From positions 18,593 through 82,592 of the forward strand of contig JAGALA010000034.1 in NCBI GenBank assembly GCA_017625935.1: DNA of 64,000 nucleotides. The letters are read 5' to 3'. The stretch comes from Clostridia bacterium (lineage in GTDB: Bacteria; Bacillota; Clostridia; Oscillospirales; CAG-272). Numbering within the stretch: the first letter of the stretch is position 1; each line of letters starts with the position of its first letter. The position numbers and the translations under genes were made by a program. The notes under the pieces were generated by a model, which worked only from the letters and a program-made list of their open reading frames with translations, did no database searches and was not told the origin of the DNA. Of the stretch, positions 4,080-63,588 are shown piece after piece.

Positions 4080-4728
4080 CTTGTCCCTTGCTCCTGTCTA
4101 TTGCGATTTTTATGCCCTCTTTGATTTCTCCAATGTTGTAGCCGTAGCGAAGGAGCGCGCCCATCATCTTCTTTACATCGTCGGAGTTACCCGAAAGCGG
4201 CATAAATTTGTTTTCGATAATGTAAGCACAGTTTTGTGCAAAGTTGACCTTTTCAAGGTTTTTCTTTACAAACTCCTGCACGTCCTCACGCTGATAGCCG
4301 TGGGCAACGAGCTCGTTTATAATTTTAAGCTTGCCATATTTCTTTTTAAGGTAGTTTTGGCAAAGAAGCTTAATTTGCTTTTTCTCGTCTATATAACCTC
4401 TGTGCTCCATATAAATTGCAACGTTTTTGCAAAGCTCGTAGGAATAGCCGCGAGCCTGAAGCTTGGTTACAAGCGCTTTTTTATTATTTTCACCGCAGGA
4501 AAGAATAGAAAATGCCGCGCGGCGAGCGTTGTCAAACAGCATTTCCTCTCTGATTTCAAGAAAATGCTTATCATATATTATCTCGCCCTCTTCAATGTCA
4601 AATCTTTCGTACTGCTCATTTGAAACAAGCATTTCAAAAACAGTGCCCATATTTGATTTTATACAAAAAATTCTGCCCGCAGGTGTTTTTTTGATTTTTT
4701 CTACCTTGTAATAGATTTCGTTTTCCAT
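4072..4728 (-). CDS. recX: RecA regulator RecX
   Basis: The gene lies immediately downstream of recA. Repeated helical RecX-type modules are present (LQARGYSYE..., LVAHGYQRED..., LLRYGYNIGE). Confidence 0.75.
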   Translation of the reverse strand: MENEIYYKVEKIKKTPAGRIFCIKSNMGTVFEMLVSNEQYERFDIEEGEIIYDKHFLEIREEMLFDNARRAAFSILSCGENNKKALVTKLQARGYSYELCKNVAIYMEHRGYIDEKKQIKLLCQNYLKKKYGKLKIINELVAHGYQREDVQEFVKKNLEKVNFAQNCAYIIENKFMPLSGNSDDVKKMMGALLRYGYNIGEIKEGIKIAIDRSKGQDE

Positions 4729-11280: not shown

Positions 11281-12453
11281 TTAAAGCTCCGTTTCAGGCG
11301 AAATTTCGCCGTTTTCAGACTCTTGGGAATAAATACATTCATTTAGTATTTCGCCCTTTTTTCCGTCCTTAATATTTATAAAGTGACAGCATTCGTTATT
11401 TTCAAAAACGCTTCTGTCACAGGCGGTTATAATAACCTGTCTGTTCTTAATATTTGATAAAATATATTTCTTTCGTGAGTCGTCAAGCTCGGATAGCACG
11501 TCATCAAAAAGGAACACGGGGTATTCACCCTTCGACTCACGGCTGATCTCGCCCTCTGCCATTTTCATTGCCAAGGCAAGCGAGCGCTGCTGACCCTGTG
11601 AGGAATAAAGGCGTGAATCCCGTCCGTTTATCTCAATTTTTAAGTCGTCCTTATGGATTCCGAAAAGCGTCGCGCCGTATTTATACTCCCTTTCCTTATA
11701 GTCGGTTAAAAGATGCAAATATCTTTGCTTCAACGCTTCTCTGTTTTCAAAATCCTCCTCGCCGCCGTTTGACTCGTAGGTGATTTTCGGCACCTCGCGC
11801 CCATCGGTCATTTCGTTAAAGAAAATTTTAACCCAATAGTCGAGCTTTTTTATATATTCGTTTCTTATATCGGCAATATCGGCGCAAAGCGAGGCAAGCT
11901 CCTCACTGTAAACGTCAATCAAAGCCTCATTTGCTTCCCTTTCCTGTGGGTTCATCTTTATTATCGTGTTTCTTTCCTCTAAAACCTGATTGTATCTTGT
12001 CATCATCTTAAGATAAACGGGCCTTAGCTGAGAAATTGCCACGTCAATAAATTTTCTTCTCACAGACGGCGCATCCTTTATAATACCGAGGTGCGACGGA
12101 CAGAACAAAACCGCACGGAATTCACCTATTATCTCCGAGGTTTTATTAACCTTTACGTTATTACGGTAGAATTTCTTCGACTGTGACTTTGAAATTTCAA
12201 CGCCCAAGCGCGTTTCTTCATCCCTTGACTTAAAGTCCATCTTGGCATAGGCAACATTACTGTCGAAATTTACAAGCTCCTTATCCTTAAAAGCACGGAA
12301 GCTCTTTCCCCTTGCAAAGAGGTAAATTCCCTCTAAAATATTCGTCTTGCCCTGCGCGTTTTCACCGTAAATAACGTTTATTCCGTCACTGAACTCGATA
12401 ATCTCACTTTCAATATTACGAAACGAGTTAAATTCAATTTTAGTAACGTTCAT
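11281..12453 (-). CDS. recF: DNA replication and repair protein RecF
   Basis: The Walker A motif is GENAQGKTN. An SMC-like signature and Walker B (LFDDVLSELD) are present. The ATG overlaps the dnaN stop. Confidence 0.93.
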   Translation of the reverse strand: MNVTKIEFNSFRNIESEIIEFSDGINVIYGENAQGKTNILEGIYLFARGKSFRAFKDKELVNFDSNVAYAKMDFKSRDEETRLGVEISKSQSKKFYRNNVKVNKTSEIIGEFRAVLFCPSHLGIIKDAPSVRRKFIDVAISQLRPVYLKMMTRYNQVLEERNTIIKMNPQEREANEALIDVYSEELASLCADIADIRNEYIKKLDYWVKIFFNEMTDGREVPKITYESNGGEEDFENREALKQRYLHLLTDYKEREYKYGATLFGIHKDDLKIEINGRDSRLYSSQGQQRSLALAMKMAEGEISRESKGEYPVFLFDDVLSELDDSRKKYILSNIKNRQVIITACDRSVFENNECCHFINIKDGKKGEILNECIYSQESENGEISPETEL

Positions 12454-13948: not shown

Positions 13949-15334
13949 TTATGTAGATGAAATTTCTCTTATTATACTGTTAATCTCGTATTTGAAGGAA
14001 GAATCGTTCTCCATCGTTTCCTTAACAAAGTTTTCACTTGAAATAACGGTTGTGCGGTCACGGTTTATCGCCTTGCCTATTTGTGATTGAGATAGGTTTG
14101 TGCATTGGCGCGCAACGTAAACGCAAATATGTCTTGGAATTGCAATTTCCTTGTTTCTCTTCGTTGACAAAATATCGTCACGCGAGATACCGAACTTTTT
14201 GGAAACCGCCAAAATGATATCGTCCATCTTCTTTTGATCGGAGTCCTTCTTCGGCACAAACTCGTTAATCGAGCTTTTTACCCTTTCCATGCTGATGTCC
14301 CCACCCTCAAGGAGCTGAATTGCACCGAGCTTTTTGATAACTCCCTCAAGCTGTCTTATCGACGAGGTCACGTTTTCTGCAAGATAGCTTATGATGTCAC
14401 TTGAAATCTGAAGGTGATTTAGGAGTGCCTTTTGCTGTAAAATCGCACATCTTAAATCATAGTCGGGGAGCTGAATATCAACGATAAGACCTGCCATAAA
14501 TCTTGTACGAAGGCGATCCTCAAGCGATCTCATTTCGTGCGGGGGACGGTCAGAGGTGAAAATCATTTGCTTGTTTGCGTCGTAAATTGCATTGAAGGTG
14601 TTGAAAAACTCCTCCTGAAGTGATTCCTTACCTGCAACGAAGTGAATATCGTCGATAAGCAAAACATCCGCATCTCTGTACTTATTTTTGAATTCGTCCG
14701 TTGAGTGCTTTCTTATTGCAGTAAAGAGCTGATTTGCAAATTCCTCACCCTTTACGTAAACGATTTTCTTGTTTGGATAGCCAGCTAAAATTCTGTTTAC
14801 GATAGCGTAAAGCAAGTGCGTTTTGCCGACACCGCTCGGACCGTAAATAAAGAGTGGGTTATAGTCCTTTTTGCTAAAGCCGTCAAAGTTCTGACTTGCA
14901 ACCGCAACCGCCGCTGAGTTTGCAAACTTGTTTGAAGCACCGACAACGAAGTTTTCAAAGGTATATTCCGAGCGGAAGCTGTCTTGTGCGCTCGGCACAG
15001 GTGTCACTGTTGATGCTACACTGCTTTGTATAGGTGATGGCTGCATCTCCTTTAAAGAGAGGTCAACCTCGCCGTGCTCGGATGAATAAATAACAACGGA
15101 TGGCTCAAAGCCCAAAATTTCATTTAGCTTGTCCGCCATTGAGATAGCAAAGCGCTGCTGAATAATTTTCTTTTTTAAGTCAGTCGGGGAAACGAAAATT
15201 GCCTCGTTTTCATCAAGAGATGCAAGCTTAAGGTCGCCAAACCATAAATTCACCGCAGTTGACGAGTTGTCCTGAAGCATCATTTCAACAAGCATTGAGC
15301 GAATGCTTTCAAGGTCAAGAGAATTAAAATTCAT
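13949..15334 (-). CDS. dnaA: Chromosomal replication initiator DnaA
   Basis: The AAA+ Walker A motif is GPSGVGKTH and the C-terminal DnaA-box-binding domain is present. The start was chosen at MNFNSLD (ATG at 15334), which is preceded by AAAGGAG. Confidence 0.96.
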   Translation of the reverse strand: MNFNSLDLESIRSMLVEMMLQDNSSTAVNLWFGDLKLASLDENEAIFVSPTDLKKKIIQQRFAISMADKLNEILGFEPSVVIYSSEHGEVDLSLKEMQPSPIQSSVASTVTPVPSAQDSFRSEYTFENFVVGASNKFANSAAVAVASQNFDGFSKKDYNPLFIYGPSGVGKTHLLYAIVNRILAGYPNKKIVYVKGEEFANQLFTAIRKHSTDEFKNKYRDADVLLIDDIHFVAGKESLQEEFFNTFNAIYDANKQMIFTSDRPPHEMRSLEDRLRTRFMAGLIVDIQLPDYDLRCAILQQKALLNHLQISSDIISYLAENVTSSIRQLEGVIKKLGAIQLLEGGDISMERVKSSINEFVPKKDSDQKKMDDIILAVSKKFGISRDDILSTKRNKEIAIPRHICVYVARQCTNLSQSQIGKAINRDRTTVISSENFVKETMENDSSFKYEINSIIREISST

Positions 15335-15620
15335 TAAAGCTCCTTTCACACTCACACGCGCACGTATAGCGCACGCGCGAGAAATTAAAAGCGCAAAAAT
15401 CGTGAAAAATTGCGCCTAATATAATTATAGATATAAATATAGTTATATATAGTATAACATAGGTGTGGAAAACTGTCAAGAAAATTTGAAAAATTTCTTC
15501 TTTATTATATATATTTTTCAACAGTACTCGTGGAAAAGGTTGAAAAATATTCATTTTTTGAATGAATTGTTCAGAAAAAATGAATAGAATTTCGTTCATA
15601 AATTGTGTATTTTGGTACAT
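15335..15620. other. oriC, upstream-of-dnaA part, plus the dnaA promoter region
   Basis: Box-like sites are tgtggaaaa (15464-15472), cgtggaaaa and tttttcaaca. The region is very AT-rich (ataattatagatataaatatagttatatatag). Confidence 0.65.
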
Positions 15621-15677
15621 TAAAAAAATAAAAAAAGAGCAAAATTTAACACTAATTTAACATTAAATTCTGCTCTT
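15621..15677 (-). terminator. Rho-independent terminator (minus strand)
   Basis: The stem is aagagcaaaattt / aaattctgctctt. On the minus strand it is followed by a long U-run (plus strand aaaaaaataaaaaaa). It lies downstream of the 15909-17192 gene and of the hairpin array. Confidence 0.7.
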
Positions 15678-15691
15678 ATTAGATTTTTGAC

Positions 15692-15900
15692 ACGCAATGC
15701 TTGCTCAAAATGACGAAGTAAATTCATGTCTAAAAGACAATTCATGTTGCACCGCAACAATTCATGGCAAAGTCAATTCATGCAACACGTTGCAATTCAT
15801 GTGCTTAGAGCACAATTTATGAAGCCCCGCTTCAATTTATGACGTTAGTCAATTCATGTTTCATATAAACAATTCATGACCGCAGGTCAATTCATTCAAC
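15692..15900. repeat. Mini-hairpin tandem array A (about 10 units, linker CAATTCATG / CAATTTATG)
   Basis: CAATT[C/T]ATG starts at 15738, 15758, 15774, 15793, 15813, 15833, 15850, 15870 and 15888, with aattcatg at 15721. The spacers are short palindromes, for example ttgcaccgcaa, caacacgttg, aagccccgctt, accgcaggt. Confidence 0.9.
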
Positions 15901-15908
15901 TCCGCTGA

Positions 15909-17192
15909 CTACTTTCCAAGCATAATTTTTATAATTTCCTTATCGGTTCCGCTCATTCCGACAGAGGCAAGGCGTCCGACGTTTTTGATTGTTTTTTCAA
16001 CGCCCTTTGTTACAATTCCCTCGCCTGAGTAGAATTGGTGGCCGCTTTTCGCCATCTCGTAGCCCATTATACCAGCTTCAACCGCCATTGAAATTTTAGC
16101 CGCGCACGAGGATTTTGCGCCGTCGCAAATAGTGCCCGATAAAATTGCAACCGCATTGACAAGAGTGTGTGAAATTTCGTAGTATCTGCCGCCGTGAAGA
16201 TAGCAAATGCCACAGCCCGCGCCAACACCTGCCGAAATAGCGCCGCAATATGCGGAAAGACAGCCGATGCCTGTTTTTTGGTGGATTGTAATTAAGTCTG
16301 AAACGATAAGTGCACGCAAAAGCTCCTCTTTTGTAGAGCCGAGCTTCTCGGCATATACGCAAAGCGGAACCGATGCGGTAATTCCCTGGTTGCCGCTGCC
16401 CGAAATTATACAAACGGGAAGCTCACAGCCGTTCATACGTGCGTCCGAGCCTGATGCCGCTAAGGCACGCGCCAAAACGCGCACGTCGTCACCCCTACTA
16501 AGATATAGTGTGCGGCCGATTGATGCGCCAAAATCGCCTGAAATTCCCTCTTTTGCTATTGCCATGTTGTATTCGATTTGCTTTTCCAAAATAGGTGAAA
16601 GCTCGTCAAGGTTGACAGTTTCTGCAAACTCTAAAATTTCCTCTACGTTAAGTGAGGAGCGGTCGGTTGCTTCCTTCTCAACAATATCGTCGGGAGACTG
16701 ATATCTTAGTGTTACGTCCTCTCCGTTTAAGCATGCCTCGACTAAATTTGTGTGGCGCTTAAGAAGATGCGCGCTTGCACTTTGACTGCCTAAAAAGCCC
16801 TCAATGTAAATTTCAAACGGGCTCGATGAATCAATTTCATATATTTCAATGCTTGCACTATTCTGAAAATCGCGTATTTTAGACACGTCCTCGGGTAAAA
16901 TTTCCGAAAGAACCTCTAATTTTTTGTGTGGGGACGCTGAAATAATACCTGCGCAAACGGCAGAATTAATACCGTGCATACCGCCTGTTTTTGGCACAAT
17001 AACGCTTTTTACGTTCTTTATTATGTTTCCGCTAAGTCCTATTTTTATCTCATTCGGATAAGCACCGAGCGCGTGAGAAATTATAGACGCGGCATACGCT
17101 ATCGCAATAGGCTCGGTACAGCCCATAGCGGGGATTAATTCCTCTTTCAGTATATTTGTATAGGCAGCTGCTTTTTCTTTTGTTAAAGCCAT
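15909..17192 (-). CDS. UPF0597 family protein (L-cysteine desulfidase / YhaM-like)
   Basis: The protein is 427 aa. The N-terminal MGCTEPIAIAYAA motif and the Gly/Ala-rich C-terminal half are typical of the serine-dehydratase-alpha-like UPF0597 family. Confidence 0.7.
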   Translation of the reverse strand: MALTKEKAAAYTNILKEELIPAMGCTEPIAIAYAASIISHALGAYPNEIKIGLSGNIIKNVKSVIVPKTGGMHGINSAVCAGIISASPHKKLEVLSEILPEDVSKIRDFQNSASIEIYEIDSSSPFEIYIEGFLGSQSASAHLLKRHTNLVEACLNGEDVTLRYQSPDDIVEKEATDRSSLNVEEILEFAETVNLDELSPILEKQIEYNMAIAKEGISGDFGASIGRTLYLSRGDDVRVLARALAASGSDARMNGCELPVCIISGSGNQGITASVPLCVYAEKLGSTKEELLRALIVSDLITIHQKTGIGCLSAYCGAISAGVGAGCGICYLHGGRYYEISHTLVNAVAILSGTICDGAKSSCAAKISMAVEAGIMGYEMAKSGHQFYSGEGIVTKGVEKTIKNVGRLASVGMSGTDKEIIKIMLGK

Positions 17193-17291: not shown

Positions 17292-18530
17292 TTAAATGTT
17301 CTTTCCGTCAACAGTTACGTTCTTAGCTCCGTCTGTATAAAGAAGATCGCCTGTTTTAAACGGTGCTTCAAAAATATCGGGCACGTTTGGCTGAATATCC
17401 ATTTTGCCGTAGTAATATGGATGCGTGTCGCCCTTTTCATACTTAAACGAGCAATTCTCTATCTTAACTCCGTCAAGGTTTTCTCCGTCACCGACAACTA
17501 TTGATGGGTTTTCCTCGACAAACGAGCAATTCTTGATTTCAATGTTTTTAATTTGACCCGTGGTATTCTTGGCGCAGATAACAAAGCCCTCGCCCTTTCC
17601 CCACCACCAGCCGGCGTGAATTTGAGTTTTAGCTCTTACGTTTTCAATTTTGATGTTTTCAACCACTCCGTTGTCGCCTGTAAAGATTGAAATTGCGCGG
17701 TTAGAGGGTAAAATTTCAATGTTTTTAATTGTCGCGTTTCTAACCTTGCTGTAAAGGTGACCGAAGCGAATTGCAGCCGAGCGCGAGGACATAAGACAGT
17801 TTGAAATTTCCATATTTTCGCACACTCCCTCGGTGTTTGTGATGCACGTTGCCGCAAAGCAATCGTCACCGCAGAGGAATGTTGAGTCACGCACAACGAT
17901 GTTTCTCGATGCTGAAAAATGAACGCCGTCATTGTTTGCAATACGGTTGTGGTTGTCAACGTAGCAGCGCTCAAAAACGATATTCTCACAGTTTGAGAAT
18001 GTAAAGGTCCAGCAAGGGGAGTTGAAAATTTGAAGGTCGTGAATATGTATATTTTTGCAGTTGTTAAAGAAAATAGGCTGAGTCGGACGAGCAATTTTTT
18101 CGTCAGGTCCGATAACCGTTTGCTCCTCATATTTCAGGGTCAAATTTTCATCGCGCATAAATTCGGGCGAGCCGCAGGTGAAGTTTGCAAACGCATCACC
18201 GCTTAAAATAATCTTACCTCCGCCGTACATTTCAATGTTGTCCGAGTCAAGCGCGTATATGAGCGAAATTGTCTTTACCATTTCGTTATGATAAAATTCA
18301 TTAACGTAGTAGTGATTTAAGTTACGTGAGCCGCAAAGCTCCGTACCCTTTTCAATATAAACCTTAATGTCGCCCTTTAATCTGAGTGTGCCCGAGAGAA
18401 AAATTCCCTTGCCGTCAAAAACAAGCGTATCGCCCGCCTCACACGCGTTAATTGCATTTTGAATAGCTACCGTGTCAAGCGTAGCACCGTCACCAATTGC
18501 ACCGAAATCTCTTACGTTTACGTTTTTCAT
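17292..18530 (-). CDS. Glycoside hydrolase family 28 (polygalacturonase-like, right-handed beta-helix)
   Basis: The N-terminus is VRDFGAIGDGATLDT. The GH28 catalytic motifs NNDGVHF, GDDCFA and RFGH are present. Confidence 0.8.
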   Translation of the reverse strand: MKNVNVRDFGAIGDGATLDTVAIQNAINACEAGDTLVFDGKGIFLSGTLRLKGDIKVYIEKGTELCGSRNLNHYYVNEFYHNEMVKTISLIYALDSDNIEMYGGGKIILSGDAFANFTCGSPEFMRDENLTLKYEEQTVIGPDEKIARPTQPIFFNNCKNIHIHDLQIFNSPCWTFTFSNCENIVFERCYVDNHNRIANNDGVHFSASRNIVVRDSTFLCGDDCFAATCITNTEGVCENMEISNCLMSSRSAAIRFGHLYSKVRNATIKNIEILPSNRAISIFTGDNGVVENIKIENVRAKTQIHAGWWWGKGEGFVICAKNTTGQIKNIEIKNCSFVEENPSIVVGDGENLDGVKIENCSFKYEKGDTHPYYYGKMDIQPNVPDIFEAPFKTGDLLYTDGAKNVTVDGKNI

Positions 18531-18555
18531 AATTATCTCCGTTAAATAAAATTTG

Positions 18556-19164
18556 TTAAATTAAATCTTCAGTTTTATATGATTTATAGCCCTCATAAAA
18601 ATAGCTGTTGTCAATGATCTTCATAAATATCTCGCGGTCATTTATCTTATCTGTCAATGCATTTTTGATTACGTGCTTAATTTCAATGTCGCGCACAGGG
18701 CTTCTTTCCATTGCCAAAAGGTAGTCCTCCTTGTCAACAAGAGACCAGTCAACAACGTAGCCAAGCTCCTTTTTGAGCATTAAATCAAGCCAAATGCGTG
18801 TGCTTCTGCCGTTACCCTCACGAAAAGGATGAGCAATGTTCATTTCAACGTATTTTTCAATGATTTCATCGAAGCTTGACTGCTTCATTTTGTCGATATT
18901 TTTCAATGATTCATTAAGATACATAAGCGGTGCAAAGCGAAAATTGCCTTTTGAAATATTCACCTTGCGAATTTCGCCTGCAAAACCGTAAATATCGCTA
19001 AAAAGATATTTGTGAATTTTAGACAAGGAGTCAAACGTGCCGCTTTCGAGCTTATCTAAAAAACCGCTTTCGTAAATCTCAAGCGCACGCTTTTTGGTTA
19101 TTTTTTCTTCAACATCTGCAAGCTCCGCCGAGCTTTCAATACCTAATTTATTTTCAAGCGCCAT
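18556..19164 (-). CDS. fic: Fic-family protein (adenylyltransferase type, class III-like)
   Basis: The Fic motif is HPFREGNGRSTR. The C-terminal SYFYEG matches the (S/T)xxxE(G/N) autoinhibitory motif. Confidence 0.85.
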   Translation of the reverse strand: MALENKLGIESSAELADVEEKITKKRALEIYESGFLDKLESGTFDSLSKIHKYLFSDIYGFAGEIRKVNISKGNFRFAPLMYLNESLKNIDKMKQSSFDEIIEKYVEMNIAHPFREGNGRSTRIWLDLMLKKELGYVVDWSLVDKEDYLLAMERSPVRDIEIKHVIKNALTDKINDREIFMKIIDNSYFYEGYKSYKTEDLI

Positions 19165-19261
19165 AATTTTGCCTCCCCATCACATAATTATCTAATTTAT
19201 ATTATATCATTAAATAATATAAAAAGCAAGAAAAAACCGAGGTAAAAGCCTCGGTATTAAA

Positions 19262-19657
19262 TTATTTATGTTTTTGATTTGGTATTTTATTCCCGTTTTC
19301 ATCAAAGTTTTTCTTTAACATTATTTCCGTTGGAATAACGGGTACTATCATAGGAATAAATTCTAAAAATGTTAAAACAAGTCCTACGTAACTGATAACC
19401 GTCGTACTTTCATTTATAAGAAATAACATCGGGATAGAAAAAATGGGTAAAGAAACTAAACCTAAAATAAGCCAAAGCTTGCCAAAAAGCTTGTGAGAAT
19501 ATTCCCACGTTTCCTTGCTTGCCATTGATTTTTCGGTTCTGTAACCCGAAAATGTATTAATATTTTTCGGCGGATTTTTAATATAAATTGCTCCAAAAAT
19601 AATCATAGAAAGTGGAATTAAAAGAACCATTATAAGCATATAAATCCAAAATCCCAT
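19262..19657 (-). CDS. SdpI/YhfL-family membrane protein
   Basis: The protein has 4 TM helices and the motif GYRTEKSMASKETWEYSHKLFGKLW. The start was chosen at the ATG at 19657 (MGFWIYM), which has an AGAGGTGA RBS. Confidence 0.65.
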   Translation of the reverse strand: MGFWIYMLIMVLLIPLSMIIFGAIYIKNPPKNINTFSGYRTEKSMASKETWEYSHKLFGKLWLILGLVSLPIFSIPMLFLINESTTVISYVGLVLTFLEFIPMIVPVIPTEIMLKKNFDENGNKIPNQKHK

Positions 19658-19786
19658 AAAATCACCTCTTAATGATATTATAATATATCTATTTACCAAA
19701 ATCAACATATTTATAAAATTGGTAAATAAAGAACACCTTTCTGCACAAGGCACGCCACAAGTGTTTCCATTGGTGAAATCATTATA

Positions 19787-20008
19787 TTATTTGTCAAGCT
19801 TTTTTGGCACATCAATAATTCCTGCCAAATAATCAAGTGAAACGTTATAAAACTGTGCGAGGATAATTGCACGGCTGAACGGAAGCTCTCTTTTTCCACT
19901 TTCATATGTGCTGTAATATTGATATGTCGTATTTAACACCTCTGCGACTTGTGCTTGTGTTAGGTCTCTGTCTTCTCTTAAATTTCTTAATCTTTTATTG
20001 TAGTTCAT
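19787..20008 (-). CDS. XRE-family helix-turn-helix regulator (cassette 1)
   Basis: The protein is 73 aa. The HTH_3-type core is LTQAQVAEVLNTTYQYYSTYESGKRELP. It is a paralog of the protein at 34000-34227. Confidence 0.85.
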   Translation of the reverse strand: MNYNKRLRNLREDRDLTQAQVAEVLNTTYQYYSTYESGKRELPFSRAIILAQFYNVSLDYLAGIIDVPKKLDK

Positions 20009-20150
20009 ATAATCACCTCATAAGAATATTACCACATATGATTAGTCAATAATTAAAAATTAATCACAAGTGATTAAAAAATACTTGACAAAAATGAAAA
20101 TGATATATATACTATTATTAATCATATATGGTTAAAAAGAGGTGAAAAAT

Positions 20151-20417
20151 ATGAAAAAAATTATTGAAAATCTATGGTACGGAAATATAGATCCGTGTGG
20201 TGATTATGTAAAAAATACAGATGAATTAAATGAGTTAAGAAAAAAACGTACTGATTTATACGAAAAGCTGTTAGCGGTATTAAATGAAAAAGAGAAAAAG
20301 CTACTTGATGAATACGAAGAATGTAATATCGAGATATTTGCAATACACGAAAAGGAATTATTTGAATATTCCTTTAGCTTAGGGTTTAACCTTGCAATAG
20401 AAATACTAACGAAATAA
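20151..20417 (+). CDS. Small helical protein partnered with the XRE regulator (cassette 1)
   Basis: The protein is 88 aa, starts with LWYGNIDP and is divergent from the XRE gene. The RBS is aagaggtga. It is a paralog of 34337-34606, with a shared ...E.EECxIE...F..G...A pattern. Confidence 0.65.
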   Translation: MKKIIENLWYGNIDPCGDYVKNTDELNELRKKRTDLYEKLLAVLNEKEKKLLDEYEECNIEIFAIHEKELFEYSFSLGFNLAIEILTK

Positions 20418-20421
20418 AAAG

Positions 20422-20455
20422 CCTTCCCCTTTGCTTGGAGGGGAAGGTGGATTTT
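20422..20455 (+). terminator. Stem-loop terminator
   Basis: The stem ccttcccct / aggggaagg is followed by a short T-rich tract. Confidence 0.55.
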
Positions 20456-20501
20456 ACGAAGTAAAAGACGGATGAGGTGTAGCCTTTATAAAAATGAATT
20501 T

Positions 20502-22395: not shown

Positions 22396-22598
22396 GCACA
22401 ACTGCGTTGTGATTCCATACAGTAAAACACACTGATTCCATACCGCATTCGGACGGATTCCATACACGAATATGGCGTGATTACATACAACCTGCGGTTG
22501 ATTAAATGTTTACGCAAGTAAACAATTCATGTCAGGCACGCCTGACAATTCATGACAGCTATACTGTCAATTTATGATACCGTAGGTATCAATTCATT
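22396..22598. repeat. Mini-hairpin tandem array B (9 units, linkers GATTCCATAC to GATTAAATG to CAATTCATG)
   Basis: Linkers start at 22411, 22434, 22456, 22478, 22499, 22523, 22546, 22568 and 22590. Palindromic spacers include tttacgcaagtaaa, tcaggcacgcctga, acagctatactgt, ataccgtaggtat and aacctgcggtt. Confidence 0.9.
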
Positions 22599-26436: not shown

Positions 26437-26545
26437 CTCACTGAGGGTGAGATTCCATACAGAACAAAGTACTGATTCCATTCACGGTGAACCGTAATTC
26501 CATACACATAAATGTGTGATTCCATACAACCTTCGGTTGATTTAG
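26437..26545. repeat. Mini-hairpin tandem array C (5 units, linker [G/A]ATTCCAT[A/T]C)
   Basis: Linkers start at 26451, 26474, 26496, 26518 and 26538 (degenerate). Spacers are tcactgagggtga, acggtgaaccgt, acataaatgtgt and aaccttcggtt. Confidence 0.85.
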
Positions 26546-26547
26546 CC

Positions 26548-26633
26548 GTAGGGTAAGATATTATCTTCCCGCGTATCAAGCAGATGTTAATTAAATCGCA
26601 TTCGCGTTTGTAGGGGAGGGGCTTGCTCCTCCC
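26548..26633 (+). repeat. Two GTAGGG-plus-hairpin REP-like elements
   Basis: The two elements are gtagggtaagatattatcttccc (26548-26570) and gtaggggaggggcttgctcctccc (26610-26633). Confidence 0.7.
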
Positions 26634-26713
26634 GCCTTTCGGATTAAGTCCTGACCTTGTCAGGATGAAGTCGCTTCGCGGTTATATTACCTTCCCTTAC
26701 AAAATCAAAAGGT

Positions 26714-30881: not shown

Positions 30882-31643
30882 TCAGCCTGCAAGTGATGCC
30901 TCGATTTTAGAGATAAGAGCTGCTTTGGAAAGCGCGCCTTCCTTTGCATACGTAATTACGCCGTTTTCATCAATTATAATTGTGTATGGGTAGTAGCCGT
31001 TTCCACCGAAGGTCTCGTAGCATTCGTCAAAATAAACGTTGCCCTCGCCAAGATCCTCATCAGCCGCAAAGATGATATCTGAGTCGGCAAAATTGTTCTT
31101 TATATGGGAAACTGCACCTGTCGAAAAATTCTGTACTGAGTGGATTGCAACAATTGTAACGCTGTCCTTATATTCCGTTGCAACCTCGGAAAACTCGGGC
31201 AGCTCGCCAACGCACGGTGGACACCACGTGCCCCAAAAGTTAATTACCGTTACCTTGCCAAGCGCGCTTGGGTCAATGCATTCACCGCTTAATCCGTTTT
31301 CGTCAAAGGTTTCAACAAAGTAGCTTGGAAGCTTTTGACCGACCTGTGTGCCGATTTCATAGCTTTCCTCGGGTGGCTCGCTTGGATTTTCAACGTCGGT
31401 ATTGGTGTCGCCCTCACCGCTGCTTGTCGATGAGTCGCCTGTGCCCTCACCGTTGCTTGTCGATGAGTCGCCTGTGCCCTCGCCGCTGTCGGTTGAGGTT
31501 CCGCCTTGGCTGCCTGTATCCGTTGAGGTGTCGCCCTCATTCTTTTCGCTCTCCGTGTCTGTGGTTTGCGGTGTCGGCGTGCAGGAAGCAAGCAAAATGC
31601 ATGCAAAAATTATTAATAAAAGACTAAAAATTTTATTTTTCAT
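30882..31643 (-). CDS. Thioredoxin-fold thiol:disulfide oxidoreductase lipoprotein (TlpA/ResA-like)
   Basis: The lipobox is LLASC. The active site is WGTWCPPC. A low-complexity Gly/Ser/Thr/Asp linker is present. Confidence 0.8.
   Translation of the reverse strand: MKNKIFSLLLIIFACILLASCTPTPQTTDTESEKNEGDTSTDTGSQGGTSTDSGEGTGDSSTSNGEGTGDSSTSSGEGDTNTDVENPSEPPEESYEIGTQVGQKLPSYFVETFDENGLSGECIDPSALGKVTVINFWGTWCPPCVGELPEFSEVATEYKDSVTIVAIHSVQNFSTGAVSHIKNNFADSDIIFAADEDLGEGNVYFDECYETFGGNGYYPYTIIIDENGVITYAKEGALSKAALISKIEASLAG
31415..31480. repeat. 2 x 33-bp tandem repeat inside the TlpA-like gene (encodes GEGTGDSSTS[N/S])
   Basis: caccgctgcttgtcgatgagtcgcctgtgccct is repeated with a single mismatch. Confidence 0.9.
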
Positions 31644-33461: not shown

Positions 33462-33974
33462 ATGGAAAGAAACGAATTACCCAAAAGAAAACCGATAAGG
33501 TTAAATAATTTTCATTACGGTGCGGGATATGCATATTTTATCACCGTATGCACGAAGGATAGAGCGAAAATTTTATCAAAAATAACCGTAGGGGACGGCG
33601 CCCTCGACGTCCCGAAAACAGAATTAACAAAATGCGGTGAAATTGTTGAGAAATATATTTTATCTACAAATAAAATAAATAATGTATGTGTTGACAGATA
33701 TGTAATTATGCCGAATCATTTTCATATGATTATTAGGATTGAGGGAGATTCAAATGATTTGGAAAACGGGACGTCGAGGGCGCCGTCCCCTACAAACAAA
33801 ACAATTCCGCATATTGTTTCAACCTTGAAAAGATTCTGCAATAAAGAAATAGGGGAAAACATCTTCCAACGCTCATTCTACGACCACGTGATACGCGGAC
33901 GCGAGGACTACGAGGAGATATCAAGGTATATTTACGAAAACCCACTAAATTGGAAAAATGATGAATTATACTAA
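33462..33974 (+). CDS. REP-associated tyrosine transposase (RAYT; IS200/IS605 Y1-HUH TnpA-like)
   Basis: The HUH motif is MPNHFHMII. The C-terminal catalytic Tyr region is YDHVIRGREDYEEISRYIYENPLNW. The protein is 170 aa. Confidence 0.8.
   Translation: MERNELPKRKPIRLNNFHYGAGYAYFITVCTKDRAKILSKITVGDGALDVPKTELTKCGEIVEKYILSTNKINNVCVDRYVIMPNHFHMIIRIEGDSNDLENGTSRAPSPTNKTIPHIVSTLKRFCNKEIGENIFQRSFYDHVIRGREDYEEISRYIYENPLNWKNDELY
33588..33614 (+). repeat. REP-like element inside the RAYT ORF (left arm; translated as VGDGALDVP)
   Basis: gtaggggacggcgccctcgacgtcccg is the perfect reverse complement of 33767-33793. Confidence 0.9.
33767..33793 (-). repeat. REP-like element inside the RAYT ORF (right arm; translated as GTSRAPSPT)
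   Basis: cgggacgtcgagggcgccgtcccctac forms a 27/27 inverted repeat with 33588-33614. Confidence 0.9.
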
Positions 33975-36820: not shown

Positions 36821-37006
36821 GTTATGAAGCTCGCTTTGCTTGCCGTTATGAGCTTGCACAGCAAGCGTTATGATATGATTGCCTTGCTAACCTGTAACTT
36901 GGCGTAGCCAATCATAACAATGCGTAAGCATTTCATAACTCATAACTTGCCCGTAAGGGCAATCATAGTTTAGCGTGATACTCCGTTAAGAGTATCACGC
37001 TAAACG
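36821..37006. repeat. Mini-hairpin array D (GTTATGA units on the left, inverted TCATAAC units on the right)
   Basis: GTTATGA starts at 36821, 36845 and 36867. TCATAAC starts at 36912, 36933 and 36940. Hairpins are gcttgcacagcaagc, aatgcgtaagcatt, ttgcccgtaagggcaa and a 13-bp stem at 36971-37002. Confidence 0.8.
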
Positions 37007-52148: not shown

Positions 52149-55082
52149 ATGAAAAAGCAAATATGCATATTTTTCGCACTGCTTATGGCAATACTTATGC
52201 TTGCGGGCTGTGCTTTAAGCGGTGGTAGGGACACAGGCGGAGCAACAGATGACACAAGCGGAGGCGAGGTAGAGGTGCCCGATGCACCAACCGATTCCGA
52301 CACGAATGTGGACAAGCCTACCGACACAGACACGGGCGTTGGCGGCGAGCCAAGTGAGCCGAGTGAGCCGAGTGAGCCAAGCGAGCCCGAAAAGCCGAGT
52401 GAGCCAAGCGAGCCGAGCAAGCCCGAAAATCCAGATGAGCCAAGCGGTGTTGAAATTACAGTATCCAAAACCGCGGCACAGCTTGCCGAATCAATTGGCA
52501 AGGGGGAAAACGGTGACATTGTCAGCGGAAGCGAAATCAAGCTTGACAATAACATTTCAGTTGAGTTTGGCAAGGGTACAGCAAACACCGAGCCTGCGCT
52601 TTACAGTGAGGCAATAAGAATTTACCAAAACGGCGGTACGCTTACCGTTAGTGCCAAAAACGGCAGAGAGCTAAAAGCAATTATCATCACCGCATCTGAC
52701 GGTAAAACAGGCAGCGGCAGGCTTGTTGCCTCTGACGGAAGTGAAATAAGCGTAAGTGGCAACATAATTACAATTACGCCAAGCAATACTCAAGAGGTGA
52801 CAGTTACCGTTGGCGGCTCAAATAAGAGTGACCGTCTTTACGTTGAGTCAATTGAGGTTGTCTATATGGGACAAAGCGGCGACGGTACGATACCAAACGA
52901 GCCGAGCGAGCCCGAAAATCCCGATATAGGCGGCGGTGACGGAAAGGAATATTTATATAATGATTTTACCGCCGAGGAAAAAAGCACGTATGAAAAATAC
53001 GTAGGGCTTGTAATTCCGTTCCTTGCAAACAATGATTACTACATAGAAAGCTATGACGAGGAGGGCTATCAGGGCGTTTACCTCTCTGCCCTTTGCGAAA
53101 GCGAGGAGGATTTCGGTTGGTATCTTGCAAAATTCTCATCCTATACAAATGACGGCACAGACGTTGACGAATACGGCGACACGTGGTATCTTTTCTCACA
53201 AGGAAACGTATATATTGACGTTTGCTACTATGAATATGAGGGCGCGTACTACGTTGACGTTGACGCATACCGCGAGTCAAGCGGTGACGTTGGCGGTGAC
53301 ACAACCGAGCCCGAGGACCCCGACACGGGTGACGGAGAGGGCGAATATCAGTATTACGAATTTACAGCCCAGGAAAAAAGCACGTACAACGATTACGTTG
53401 GGCTTGTGATTCCGTTTATTCCAAACAACTACTACGAAATAGAAGCATATGACGAGGGCGGCTACCGTGGCGTTTACTACTCTGCTCTTTGCAAGAGCGA
53501 AACCGCGTTTAGCTGGTATCTTGCAATGTTCTCCTCTTACTCAAATGACGGCACGGACGTTGACGAATACGGTGACACTTGGTATCTTTTCTCACAAGGC
53601 AATGTTTTTATTGACGTTTGCTACTATCAATACGAGGGTGCGTACTACGTTGACGTTGACGCATACCGCGAGTCAAGCGGTGACGTTGGCGGCGATGTTG
53701 GCGGCGGTGACGATGGCGGCGACTCAGGCGGAAACGATAATATCGGCGGCGAGGGTGACAAGGACGTAATAACAAACGCAGGTGCTTCCCTGCCAGAGGA
53801 CGACGGCGACGGAATATATGACGTTGATTTTACGGATGCCGACAAGGTAAAGGACGTAACCGACCAGGGCTACTTCCTTGACGGATGCCCAACGCTCGGC
53901 TCCTCGGGCGTGCTTGTTATTCCCGTTGAGTTCAGCGACAGAACCGCATCGAGCTTAGGCTACGATATAGACAACATTAAAAGCGCATTTGAAAAGGGCG
54001 GCGAAAACATCTATTATTCCGTTTACGACTATTACTACATATCGAGCTTAGGTCAGCTGACGCTTGATATTACCGTCGTTGACGAGTGGTTCCGTCCGTC
54101 AAAGCCAAGCACCTACTATGCAAGCTACACCGATAACTACGATGGGACAGAAACTCCAATGGGTGACCAGCTCGTAATTGACGAGGCACTTGCTTACCTT
54201 GCGGAAATAATGGACCTTTCAAAATTCGATTCCGACTCTAACGGAACGATAGATGCCGTTGTGCTTGTAACAACGCTTGAAATTGACCCCGACACAGATT
54301 TTTATTGGGCGTACAGATATTGGAACATATACGCGGACGAGAATGACAATTACTACGAATATGACGGAGTGAGCGCAAACGATTACCTTTGGGCGCCCTA
54401 CGAGTTCATTCACGAAAACCCCGAAAATAGCGAGGACTACTCCGATAAATCGATTATAAATCCGTACACCTTTATTCACGAGTTTGGACACATTCTCGGC
54501 GCTGAGGATTACTACGATACAGCCTACGCAGGCTCGTCCCCGCTTGACGGCAACGATATAATGGATGCAAAAATCGGTGACCATAACGCCTACACGAAAT
54601 TCAACCTCGGCTGGATAACAAATTCCCGCCTTGTTGTAACAGACACCGAAATCACCGTAACGCTCGATGCGTTTTCCGAAAGCGGCGATACGCTGATAAT
54701 AGCAAACAACTTCGACCCATCCCTTGGCGTATATCAAGAATACTACATAATAGTTTACTATACCGAGGATGAATTAAACTCGGGCGTGGGCGGCTATTTT
54801 GACGGAGAGGGCATTATCGTTTACCACGTCAACGCTTCTCTTTTCTGTGAGGAGTACGATGGCGAGATGTATTACGACGTATATAACACCAACACCGACC
54901 CAAGCGACAGCTACGGCACGGAAAACAACCTAATTGAGCTTGTAGAAAACGACTTTGGTTATCTATTCTTAGAGGGCGACACCTTAGGTACGCTCACTGA
55001 TGACCTCGGCGCGCCCCTTGGCTACACCTTCACGGTTGAGTCCTTGGGAGAACAGGCAACTCTTACAGTAAGCGCAAAATAA
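52149..55082 (+). CDS. Secreted zinc metalloprotease lipoprotein (M6/immune inhibitor A-like, HEFGH)
   Basis: The lipobox is LAGC. An (EPS)n linker and two internal repeats of about 118 aa are present. The C-terminal peptidase domain has FIHEFGHILGAEDYYD. Confidence 0.75.
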   Translation: MKKQICIFFALLMAILMLAGCALSGGRDTGGATDDTSGGEVEVPDAPTDSDTNVDKPTDTDTGVGGEPSEPSEPSEPSEPEKPSEPSEPSKPENPDEPSGVEITVSKTAAQLAESIGKGENGDIVSGSEIKLDNNISVEFGKGTANTEPALYSEAIRIYQNGGTLTVSAKNGRELKAIIITASDGKTGSGRLVASDGSEISVSGNIITITPSNTQEVTVTVGGSNKSDRLYVESIEVVYMGQSGDGTIPNEPSEPENPDIGGGDGKEYLYNDFTAEEKSTYEKYVGLVIPFLANNDYYIESYDEEGYQGVYLSALCESEEDFGWYLAKFSSYTNDGTDVDEYGDTWYLFSQGNVYIDVCYYEYEGAYYVDVDAYRESSGDVGGDTTEPEDPDTGDGEGEYQYYEFTAQEKSTYNDYVGLVIPFIPNNYYEIEAYDEGGYRGVYYSALCKSETAFSWYLAMFSSYSNDGTDVDEYGDTWYLFSQGNVFIDVCYYQYEGAYYVDVDAYRESSGDVGGDVGGGDDGGDSGGNDNIGGEGDKDVITNAGASLPEDDGDGIYDVDFTDADKVKDVTDQGYFLDGCPTLGSSGVLVIPVEFSDRTASSLGYDIDNIKSAFEKGGENIYYSVYDYYYISSLGQLTLDITVVDEWFRPSKPSTYYASYTDNYDGTETPMGDQLVIDEALAYLAEIMDLSKFDSDSNGTIDAVVLVTTLEIDPDTDFYWAYRYWNIYADENDNYYEYDGVSANDYLWAPYEFIHENPENSEDYSDKSIINPYTFIHEFGHILGAEDYYDTAYAGSSPLDGNDIMDAKIGDHNAYTKFNLGWITNSRLVVTDTEITVTLDAFSESGDTLIIANNFDPSLGVYQEYYIIVYYTEDELNSGVGGYFDGEGIIVYHVNASLFCEEYDGEMYYDVYNTNTDPSDSYGTENNLIELVENDFGYLFLEGDTLGTLTDDLGAPLGYTFTVESLGEQATLTVSAK

Positions 55083-63480: not shown

Positions 63481-63497
63481 AAAACGTGAGGGGGCGG

Positions 63498-63588
63498 GAC
63501 GTCGCCCAAAACAGGTCGTCGAGGACGTCGCTAAAACGGGTCGTCGAGGACGTCGCTAAAACGGGTCGTCGGGGACGTCGACCCCTAC
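63498..63588 (-). repeat. REP-like element expanded into about 3.6 tandem 25/26-bp units (GTAGGGG head on the minus strand)
   Basis: Units of gacgtcgc[c/t]aaaac[a/g]ggtcgtcgag lie at 63498-63523, 63524-63548 and 63549-63573, with a partial unit at 63574-63588 ending in cccctac. Confidence 0.85.

Follow-up and report, generated by a model that had tools for sequence, protein, structure and literature searches.

The 64,000-nucleotide stretch of Clostridia DNA analysed in this study (contig JAGALA010000034.1, positions 18,593 to 82,592; hereafter the window) contains an SDH_alpha-like gene (15909-17192, minus strand), which is followed by a tandem array of ten small hairpin units joined by the linker CAATTYATG, designated A1 (15706-15896, plus strand). 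A1 lies between the stop codon of this gene and its intrinsic terminator (15635-15677, minus strand; a 20-pair stem with a T-run), where the original prediction, made from the bare sequence, had placed it. The array reads (C)AAAATG-ACGAAGT-AAATTCATG-TCTAAAAGA-CAATTCATG-TTGCACCGCAA-...-ACCGCAGGT-CAATTCAT followed by T, i.e., it starts with a degenerate linker (CAAAATG), has AAATTCATG as its first linker, and ends in a truncated linker, CAATTCAT, before the T. Its spacers are, in order, ACGAAGT, TCTAAAAGA, TTGCACCGCAA, GCAAAGT, CAACACGTTG, TGCTTAGAGCA, AAGCCCCGCTT, ACGTTAGT, TTTCATATAAA, and ACCGCAGGT, each of them followed by CAATTYATG. The window holds 12 copies of this 9-mer (2.2 expected; 12 were reached in 0 of 100 shuffles), eight of which are within A1 and three at 22523-22576. 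A1 is very probably an expanded arm of a hairpin-linker repeat family of the Gut-1 type (Gut-1 RNA motif, Rfam RF01706) that is associated with PF05635 genes. PF05635, a large family of uncharacterised proteins, is annotated as '23S rRNA intervening-sequence protein' (IVP) and corresponds to the four-helix-bundle protein TIGR02436.

The terminator at 15635-15677 forms the centre of a bipartite element around A1, of which the reversed arm is decayed (15561-15605), with AATGAATTG at 15561-15569 and CATAAATTG at 15597-15605; this arm is better kept in strain L002, as ACC-TTC-GGT and TGTC-TTTC-GGCACA hairpins. Given a terminator in this position, A1 should be transcribed as the 3' untranslated region (UTR) of the SDH_alpha-like gene, with the linker reading CAUGAAUUG. 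The array itself is not a cluster of terminators, as its units lack a U-tract: a GC-rich hairpin followed by a U-tract is clear only at 15635-15677, and although one array unit was marginally flagged as a terminator, the units lead into AATTCATG and not into a T-run. Beyond the terminator lie the dnaA promoter (15479-15451) and dnaA (13949-15355). The location of A1 "next to oriC", as first proposed, rests on the neighbouring dnaA only and could not be upheld. The cumulative GC-skew minimum is at about 36-40 kb of the window, where gene orientation also flips, whereas dnaA lies at 14-15 kb; the DnaA boxes form no cluster, only two near-consensus ones being present near dnaA (13939 and 15464), and the replication origin may therefore not adjoin A1. 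The same array was found in independent NCBI, ENA, and Logan assemblies, which answers the concern that it could be an assembly artefact. Tandem Repeats Finder (TRF) did not detect A1 in the window because the units differ from each other.

The linker is the constant element of these arrays, and it is the structure rather than the sequence of the intervening spacers that is conserved. About 28 of the 31 units in the four arrays of the window (A1 to A4) pair over at least 3 bp when the constant TG/CA flank is included (manual count), so that the earlier estimate of 25 self-complementary units out of about 30 was, if anything, conservative. The palindromes do not reach into the linker beyond TG/CA. 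In a census of 220 distinct spacers of the CAATTYATG type (flavour A) from 72 sources, end-anchored stems of 2 bp or more were present in 88%, compared with a mean of 8.8% and a maximum of 14.5% in 1000 shuffles, and stems of at least 3 bp in 69% (2.6% when shuffled). The self-complementarity noticed in the window is thus beyond chance across these sources. The view that stems differ completely between units was too strong, as the stems fall into a limited number of families that return in different arrays and species with varying loops, namely ACGAAGT, TTTC/GAAA, AAGC/GCTT, CAAC/GTTG, ACC/GGT, and TGC/GCA.

The hairpins are also strand-specific. Their modal loop is 3 nt (104 of 194 hairpins), the closing pair is C-G in 155 of 194, and on the CAATTCATG strand 83 loops are of the G..A type versus 5 of the complementary T..C type. 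Frequent units are GCGAAGC, GCGCAGC, GCGTAGC, CCGAAGG, and ACCGCAGGT, and the same loop bias is found in three other linker flavours. This bias indicates that the structure matters on one particular strand and speaks against a role as duplex DNA. Mismatches in the stems (G·T 6 vs A·C 3) are too rare to favour either strand. G-N-A triloops closed by C-G reportedly form ultra-stable DNA mini-hairpins, e.g., d(GCGAAGC), as described by Hirao and Yoshizawa; because GNRA-type loops are good RNA loops as well, RNA and single-stranded DNA (ssDNA) both remain candidates.

To survey the distribution of the arrays, one genome per GTDB species was scanned for two linkers 6-16 nt apart, which yielded at least 120 loci; a true array was defined as at least three linkers with palindromic spacers. 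Among the matches listed, true arrays occur almost only in metagenome-assembled genomes (MAGs) of rumen/gut Clostridia (Oscillospirales-like), where they are present in dozens of species of the Acutalibacteraceae, Oscillospiraceae, Ruminococcaceae, and 'Eubacteriales', and the listed matches from other phyla are single chance matches or plain satellites. Arrays are also carried by phage contigs with terminase and portal genes, between which they are sited. A viral scan for ATTCCATA returned only chance or low-complexity matches, and a BLAST search against annotated phages and plasmids returned none. Each unit consists of a constant linker of 7-9 nt followed by a hairpin of free sequence and length. 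In its usual, bipartite form the element has two arms: 3-4 reversed units and, beyond a centre of 25-90 nt, about four forward units. The reversed units are CATGAATTG, the centre typically reads AATTGCC...(T)AATG and includes one hairpin, and the outermost linker on either side is cut short to CAATTCAT with a following T, C, or A. In all, 56 arms are paired divergently and 6 convergently. Several linker flavours exist, i.e., CAATTCATG (as in A1), ATTTCAC, ATATCAC, ACTTCAC, AATTTAGC, ATATCGA, GATTCCATA, and TCATAAC. Elements lie between genes in tandem (35 cases), between convergent genes (20), and between divergent genes (16), and solo arrays are oriented opposite to the flanking genes in 12 cases and in the same direction in 8. 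In a MAFFT alignment of flavour-A arms the gaps fell out of register with the stems, and a sequence-only model would do no more than restate the 9-mer match.

The architecture of these arrays is that of the Gut-1 RNA, a motif found in environmental sequence from the human gut and rated 'certainly' RNA on the basis of covariation (Weinberg et al. 2010, Genome Biol 11:R31; PMC2864571). Both consist of hairpins of free sequence (three in Gut-1, supported by covariation) separated by one constant linker (GUGAAAU in Gut-1), both come from gut bacteria, and the Gut-1 loops, read on the other strand, are of the GNA, GNRA, or cUUCGg type. The RF01706 consensus, CAaUGAAAU-hp-GUGAAAU-hp-GUGAAAU-hp-UGUGAAAU (hp, hairpin), can be set beside the CATGAATTG-hp repeats on the minus strand of the window, where the free hairpins, the constant linker, and the UGAA(A/U)U core are all present. 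The RF01706 model matches both arms, on opposite strands, of related elements upstream of PF05635 genes at 51-69 bits, covering the linker flavours GTGAAAT, ATGAAAT/TGAAATA, GTGATAT, and AGTTATA/AGTGATA. Moreover, the A1 orthologue in the sister species L290 scores 33.4 bits (E 0.008), RF01706 being the sole Rfam family with a sub-threshold match there. The published seed alignment (supplement 95 of PMC2864571) contains locus L348, in the flank of which the inverted second arm is visible but unannotated.

The window itself does not reach the RF01706 gathering threshold (50 bits); it has no Rfam match at gathering, nor at E up to 10 over 15400-37200. The window linkers CAATTCATG, GATTCCATA, and TCATAAC and their shorter stems escape the model, and the array differs from Gut-1 as known in linker, size, and copy number. 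The assertion that the array belongs to no described repeat class is thus only partly right: that model does not detect the flavour of the window, and the architecture is that of RF01706. Gut-1 was published as one three-hairpin unit on one strand, without function, context, or organism; its description lacks the bipartite inverted form, the range of 1-17 units, the diversity of flavours, the phage copies, and the linkage to PF05635. Literature searches for the 9-mer and for generic tandem-hairpin terms returned nothing directly relevant, and in the literature searched no description was found of the bipartite form, the flavour diversity, the strain dynamics, or the PF05635 association.

The association with PF05635 emerged from the genes around the arrays. 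Among 254 open reading frames (ORFs) within 1.5 kb of arrays at 76 loci, PF05635 was the sole recurrent family outside strain-orthologous loci, being present at six loci. The element lies directly upstream of the PF05635 start in four of these six; at L073 the gene is between the reversed and the forward arm, at L041 there is a forward arm only, which overlaps the start of the called ORF, and the upstream array of L098 (1815-2070) adds a further linker, TATATCATCA/TGATGATATA. When homologues were chosen by protein alone, four out of four had a bipartite element directly upstream, ending in CAATTCATA, which is followed by a ribosome-binding site and the ATG. Two PF05635 paralogues on one contig (L292) each have their own flavour, that of the second being TCGATATG/ATATCGAA (100-320). 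A metagenome scan seeded with a PF05635 alignment, combined with the earlier PF05635 loci, gave 86 distinct upstream regions. A chain of at least five copies of one 7-mer in both orientations was present in 69 of them, and a chain of at least four linkers in 76 of 86, versus 2 of 125 control windows from the same loci. In most protein clusters the forward arm adjoins the gene, with the last linker 12-80 nt before the ATG. Linker flavour is uniform within PF05635 protein clusters of 80% identity and differs between many clusters, the flavours being AATTCAT, ATATCAC, ATTTCAC/ATTTCAT, ATATCGA, ACTTCAC, AATTTAGC, and TATAACT. One search found thousands of close PF05635 homologues, on contigs of mostly 0.5-1.5 kb. 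Among relatives, a structure has been solved only for 2RLD, an uncharacterised protein with five chains in the deposited entry. The family presumably also includes Avd, the accessory protein of diversity-generating retroelements (DGRs).

Some further observations were made on the PF05635 cassettes. The gene-proximal arm begins with a conserved unit, GAGCGAAGCGAG (or GAGCGAAAGCGAG), which forms a GC-GAA-GC mini-hairpin with possible flanking tandem G·A pairs. This unit is kept across linker flavours (L292 at 1090-1125, L299, L304, L073, L316, L348, and L336) and is absent from the window arrays. The cassettes are repeatedly located just downstream of an rlmD/trmA-like tRNA_U5-meth_tr gene or of tRNA genes with terminators (L292-L313, L394, L041, L084; L326, L348, L354, L385), the neighbourhood of L385 comprising a tRNA, 6S RNA, and another tRNA. 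The PF05635 gene is often followed by an ORF of 111-123 aa without family match, or by an ASCH-like ORF.

The three further loci named together with A1 in the original prediction (at 22396, 26437, and 36821) are real arrays, which brings the density in the window to about one per 16 kb. A2 (22396-22598, plus strand) occupies the whole spacer between rlmH and mnmG; it has five units of the GATTCCATA type, two of which are transitional (ATTACATA and ATTAAATG), followed by four CAATTYATG units and a terminal CAATTCAT before a T. A3 (26437-26545, plus strand) is upstream of bipA, and GATTCCATA links its five units. A4 (36821-36968) constitutes a full bipartite element with another linker flavour. 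It comprises a reversed arm with GTTATGA three times (36821-36873), a centre (36874-36898), and a forward arm with TCATAAC three times plus TCATAG (36899-36968) and GTA/GTAA loops; a 16-bp hairpin follows directly (36969-37005). A4 thus has the reversed arm, centre, forward arm, and reverse-complementary linkers that define the element, and A1 has them with a decayed reversed arm. The genes flanking the window arrays are the SDH_alpha-like gene, dnaA, rlmH, mnmG, bipA, and glmM.

Comparison between strains and species revealed how such arrays change. At the A1 site, five strains (97-98% protein identity) have 10, 7, 5, 4, and 1 units, i.e., the unit gain and loss that had been anticipated, and the variants are nested deletions between linkers of one longer array, except for the unit TCTAAAAGA, which is at a different position in L002. 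The sister species L290 (92% identity) has eleven mostly different units at this site. Upstream of bipA, L290 has 17 reversed CATRAATTG linkers, including a duplicated three-unit block, and shares units in inverted form with its own A1 array. L002 has a reversed CATRAATTG array with five clear hairpin units at the position where the window has GATTCCATA units. A2 is absent from L290, in which the rlmH-mnmG spacer is 35 nt with one degenerate unit. Hence arrays grow, shrink, and exchange units via identical linkers, as seen in nested deletions, block duplications, and shared unit families, and this remodelling takes place by recombination or slippage between the identical linkers. The linkers themselves hardly vary: 1 of 171 sites is variable among strains, whereas stems vary at 6 of 144 sites and loops at 6 of 68 (loop versus linker, Fisher p = 0.002). 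Between species, homologous elements (L063, L113, L098) show compensatory stem changes, from AAATC/GATTT to AAAAC/GTTTT and from CCC/GGG to TCC/GGA.

A possible way in which these elements function can be outlined. The element would act as a single strand, either RNA or ssDNA, in which the hairpins may serve as sequence-free spacers: as a helix joins its own two ends whatever its length, consecutive linkers would be held at a fixed spacing. The repeated linkers could then form a multivalent binding platform for an oligomeric PF05635 protein, which may control the gene that encodes it via the upstream element and may also act on the dispersed gene-less copies. It is the presence of 3-4 linkers per arm, together with a small helical protein that is oligomeric, that suggests a multivalent and flavour-specific platform. 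By analogy, the GAG/UAG repeats bound by TRAP and the GGA arrays of CsrB/RsmZ engage a symmetric oligomer or many copies of a protein. The likeness lies in a short motif that is repeated at roughly fixed spacing and met by an oligomeric or multi-copy protein; the motifs discussed here are between hairpins and not in loops. The explanation as a whole, which combines the assignment to a Gut-1-type, PF05635-associated repeat family with this mechanism, is judged an even proposition, and the mechanism by itself is put forward more tentatively.

Several observations weigh against this interpretation. A few gut lineages account for most of the PF05635 sample, whose members are not independent of each other phylogenetically, and the co-variation of flavour and protein could reflect co-descent of a cassette instead of recognition. 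The window has no PF05635 ORF (hmmsearch over every ORF of 60 aa or more), so that any action on its four arrays would have to be in trans; with no such gene within about 80 nt downstream of a forward arm, the window copies are gene-less 'solo' elements. Phage contigs likewise bear arrays without a PF05635 gene. At L394, a gene-less GTGAAGT/ACTTCAC element (11633-11779) is located 1.6 kb from an IVP gene that has a flavour-A element, this one 20-kb neighbourhood being the extent of the comparison between solo and gene-linked flavours. The GATTCCATA units of the window have no G..A loop bias, and the Rfam Gut-1 model (GUGAAAU) describes the strand opposite to the G..A loops. Lastly, the window arrays, with up to 10 units, far exceed the canonical 3-4, a length for which a model of wrapping around a ring has no need.

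Alternatively, the elements could be selfish, non-autonomous repeats like REPINs (paired inverted repetitive extragenic palindromes, REPs) or miniature inverted-repeat transposable elements (MITEs). The linker would then be recognised or cut, on folded ssDNA, by a mobilising enzyme (HUH/RAYT-like or of unknown type), PF05635 would be mere cargo or a neighbour that is often present, and any effect of the arrays on the host would be incidental. Their dispersal over tandem, convergent, and divergent intergenic regions, the copies in phage genomes, the presence and absence between sister species with replacement of whole arrays at one site, and the REPIN-like inverted doublets all fit such repeats, as do the short PF05635 contigs, which multi-copy sequence would give, and the C-G-closed G-N-A triloops, whose reported stability in DNA favours a DNA strand. 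Against this, target-site duplications are missing from the flanks of about eight elements inspected, near-identical copies at unrelated sites were not found in the DNA available, and transposase-like genes are not enriched near arrays. Orthologous elements furthermore persist across species with compensatory stems, which is not the behaviour of selfish copies in decay, although template-switch 'palindrome correction' could mimic this pattern. A selfish origin is thus considered rather unlikely. The lack of target duplications, together with palindromes that stop at TG/CA, also removes the ground for reading the units as footprints of hairpin-forming excision. Nor does the suggestion that the units are substrates of the REP-associated tyrosine transposase (RAYT) of the window find support. 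This RAYT-like HUH/Y1 ORF (33462-33974, plus strand; NF047646, 72 bits with a cutoff of 80; no Pfam match at E up to 1e-3) goes with a different, GTAG-type REP, which is present within the ORF as GTAGGGGACGGCGCCCTCGACGTCCC and its reverse complement (33589-33615 and 33769-33794); it is flanked by ordinary terminator hairpins and not by mini-hairpin arrays, and RAYT genes are not enriched next to arrays in the 76 loci.

An RNA element in cis that needs no protein, either a small RNA, which is the Rfam reading of Gut-1, or a REP-like stabiliser or processing site of mRNA, would agree with the position of A1 in a 3' UTR just before the terminator, with A2 filling an intercistronic spacer up to the ribosome-binding site of mnmG, with phage copies between terminase and portal genes, and with the covariation by which Gut-1 was called 'certainly RNA' (PMC2864571). 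In one variant of this explanation, the linkers of the two arms pair into a long branched stem that is a nuclease substrate, like that of the 23S rRNA intervening sequences; the arm linkers are mutually reverse-complementary in all flavours, and the predicted fold of the bipartite element pairs them (z = -3.6 to -4.1), yet CATGATTTG, a linker variant that is conserved, has no compensating change in the other arm. Arrays also occur in both orientations relative to their genes and even where the flanking genes diverge, the two arms have their G..A loops on opposite strands so that one transcript cannot have the favoured loops in both, and a generic stabiliser requires no 9-mer that is conserved across bacterial families. 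A purely protein-independent RNA element therefore carries a low probability. Lower still is that of operator or iteron sites in double-stranded DNA, recognised by a sequence-specific DNA-binding protein with the spacers as mere filler. Direct and inverted repeats of 7-9 bp just upstream of a gene, with the last site 12-80 nt before the ATG, do resemble operators, but filler is not expected to be 88% palindromic with strand-specific loops and C-G closing pairs, and a spacing of 16-23 bp gives no helical phasing, which makes this explanation very improbable.

Known repeat systems resemble the arrays in part. REP elements, bacterial interspersed mosaic elements (BIMEs), and REPINs are likewise abundant intergenic hairpins, often arranged as inverted doublets or in tandem with conserved linkers; they occur in 3' UTRs as well as in the spacers between cistrons and presumably act as ssDNA. 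In REPs, however, a genome keeps the stem constant, along with a 5' GTAG, whereas the present arrays combine free stems with a conserved linker. A REP/BIME or REPIN with a RAYT would call for an imperfect palindrome of 20-40 nt with a 5' GTAG, of constant stem throughout the genome, and for a RAYT gene flanked by it; the arrays were accordingly rejected as such sequences, as their stems differ between units and lack GTAG. An array of clustered regularly interspaced short palindromic repeats (CRISPR), for which the repeats should measure 23-47 bp and the spacers between them should be unique, similarly long, and not palindromic, was also rejected, given a repeat of only 9 nt and spacers of 7-15 nt that are 88% palindromic. 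The early distinction from REP/BIME, CRISPR, and simple satellites was thus correct. The 23S rRNA intervening sequences with an S23p/PF05635 ORF, which occur in Leptospira and Coxiella, have flanking repeats that can pair into a stem. They share with the present elements a gene with flanking inverted repeats able to pair (cf. L073), and differ in that the present elements are outside rRNA, have modular arms, are mostly upstream of the gene, and in many cases have no gene. Stem-loop arrays of TIGR-Tas guide RNAs also hold 'variable but consistently palindromic' hairpins in tandem, without the sequence conservation that repeat finders need, and are built of units with two spacers of 8-12 nt, box C (CCA-like) and box D (UG), next to a tas (Nop-domain) gene (Faure et al. 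2025, PMC12045711). The units in the window are half that size (16-23 nt), with neither dual non-palindromic spacers nor 8-12 nt intervals flanked by box C/D, and the arrays are scattered over many loci and not beside an effector gene; a Nop-domain gene was not among the flanking ORFs scanned, no dedicated scan of all window ORFs having been made. The probability of a TIGR-Tas or other CRISPR-like adaptive array is therefore negligible.

Further features were noted in and around the window. GTAG-type REP-like hairpins (GTAGGGGAGGGGCTTGCTCCTCCC) adjoin A3 at 26595-26640, and in strain L002 (about 4600-4700) a GTAG-type REP is inserted within an A2 hairpin unit (CCG / TCCGCTG...GTAGGGGACGGCGCCCTCGACGTCCC / GCATTTGGACG, with slashes at the junctions). 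The region 17300-20500, between mnmG and a GH28-like gene, is a variable islet when the window is compared with L002, L003, and L290: HTH and SdpI-like genes are present in the window, L002, and L290, and an SLFN/AlbA_2 ATPase takes their place in L003. A Fic gene is found in the window, L002, and L003 and is absent from L290, and L002 and L290, unlike the window, have a DUF559/Vsr-like gene inserted ahead of rlmH. Tandem repeats unrelated to the hairpin arrays are located at 52345-52446, 63497-63580, and 31410-31488 (periods of 9/27/36, 25, and 33 nt, respectively), probably inside coding sequence.

The Gut-1-type assignment of A1 has consequences for annotation as well as for the PF05635 family. 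Short-read contigs often end inside arrays (e.g., the ends of L001, L005, and L289), and it appears that the arrays systematically break assemblies of gut/rumen metagenomes; as neither TRF nor CRISPR finders nor the Rfam model detects them, MAG annotation systematically misses them. The Rfam entry is corrected in two respects: the published three-hairpin Gut-1 model is one arm of a larger, bipartite, multi-flavour element of which the copy number varies between strains, and an orphan motif of 2010, described as 'human gut only', is tied to rumen/gut Clostridia and their phages. A more speculative prospect is that PF05635/TIGR02436 proteins and hairpin-linker arrays constitute a widespread and unrecognised protein-nucleic-acid system in which an oligomeric protein would read a short single-stranded linker, presented many times over between hairpins of free sequence, and in which protein and flavour co-diversify; it is equally speculative that, within such a system, the gene-less copies have spread in chromosomes and phages, where they would be targets, decoys, or mobile derivatives. 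If this holds true, the orphan Gut-1 would gain a partner and the PF05635 family a ligand, which may be the first testable one for a family that is otherwise familiar chiefly through 23S rRNA intervening sequences and through Avd.

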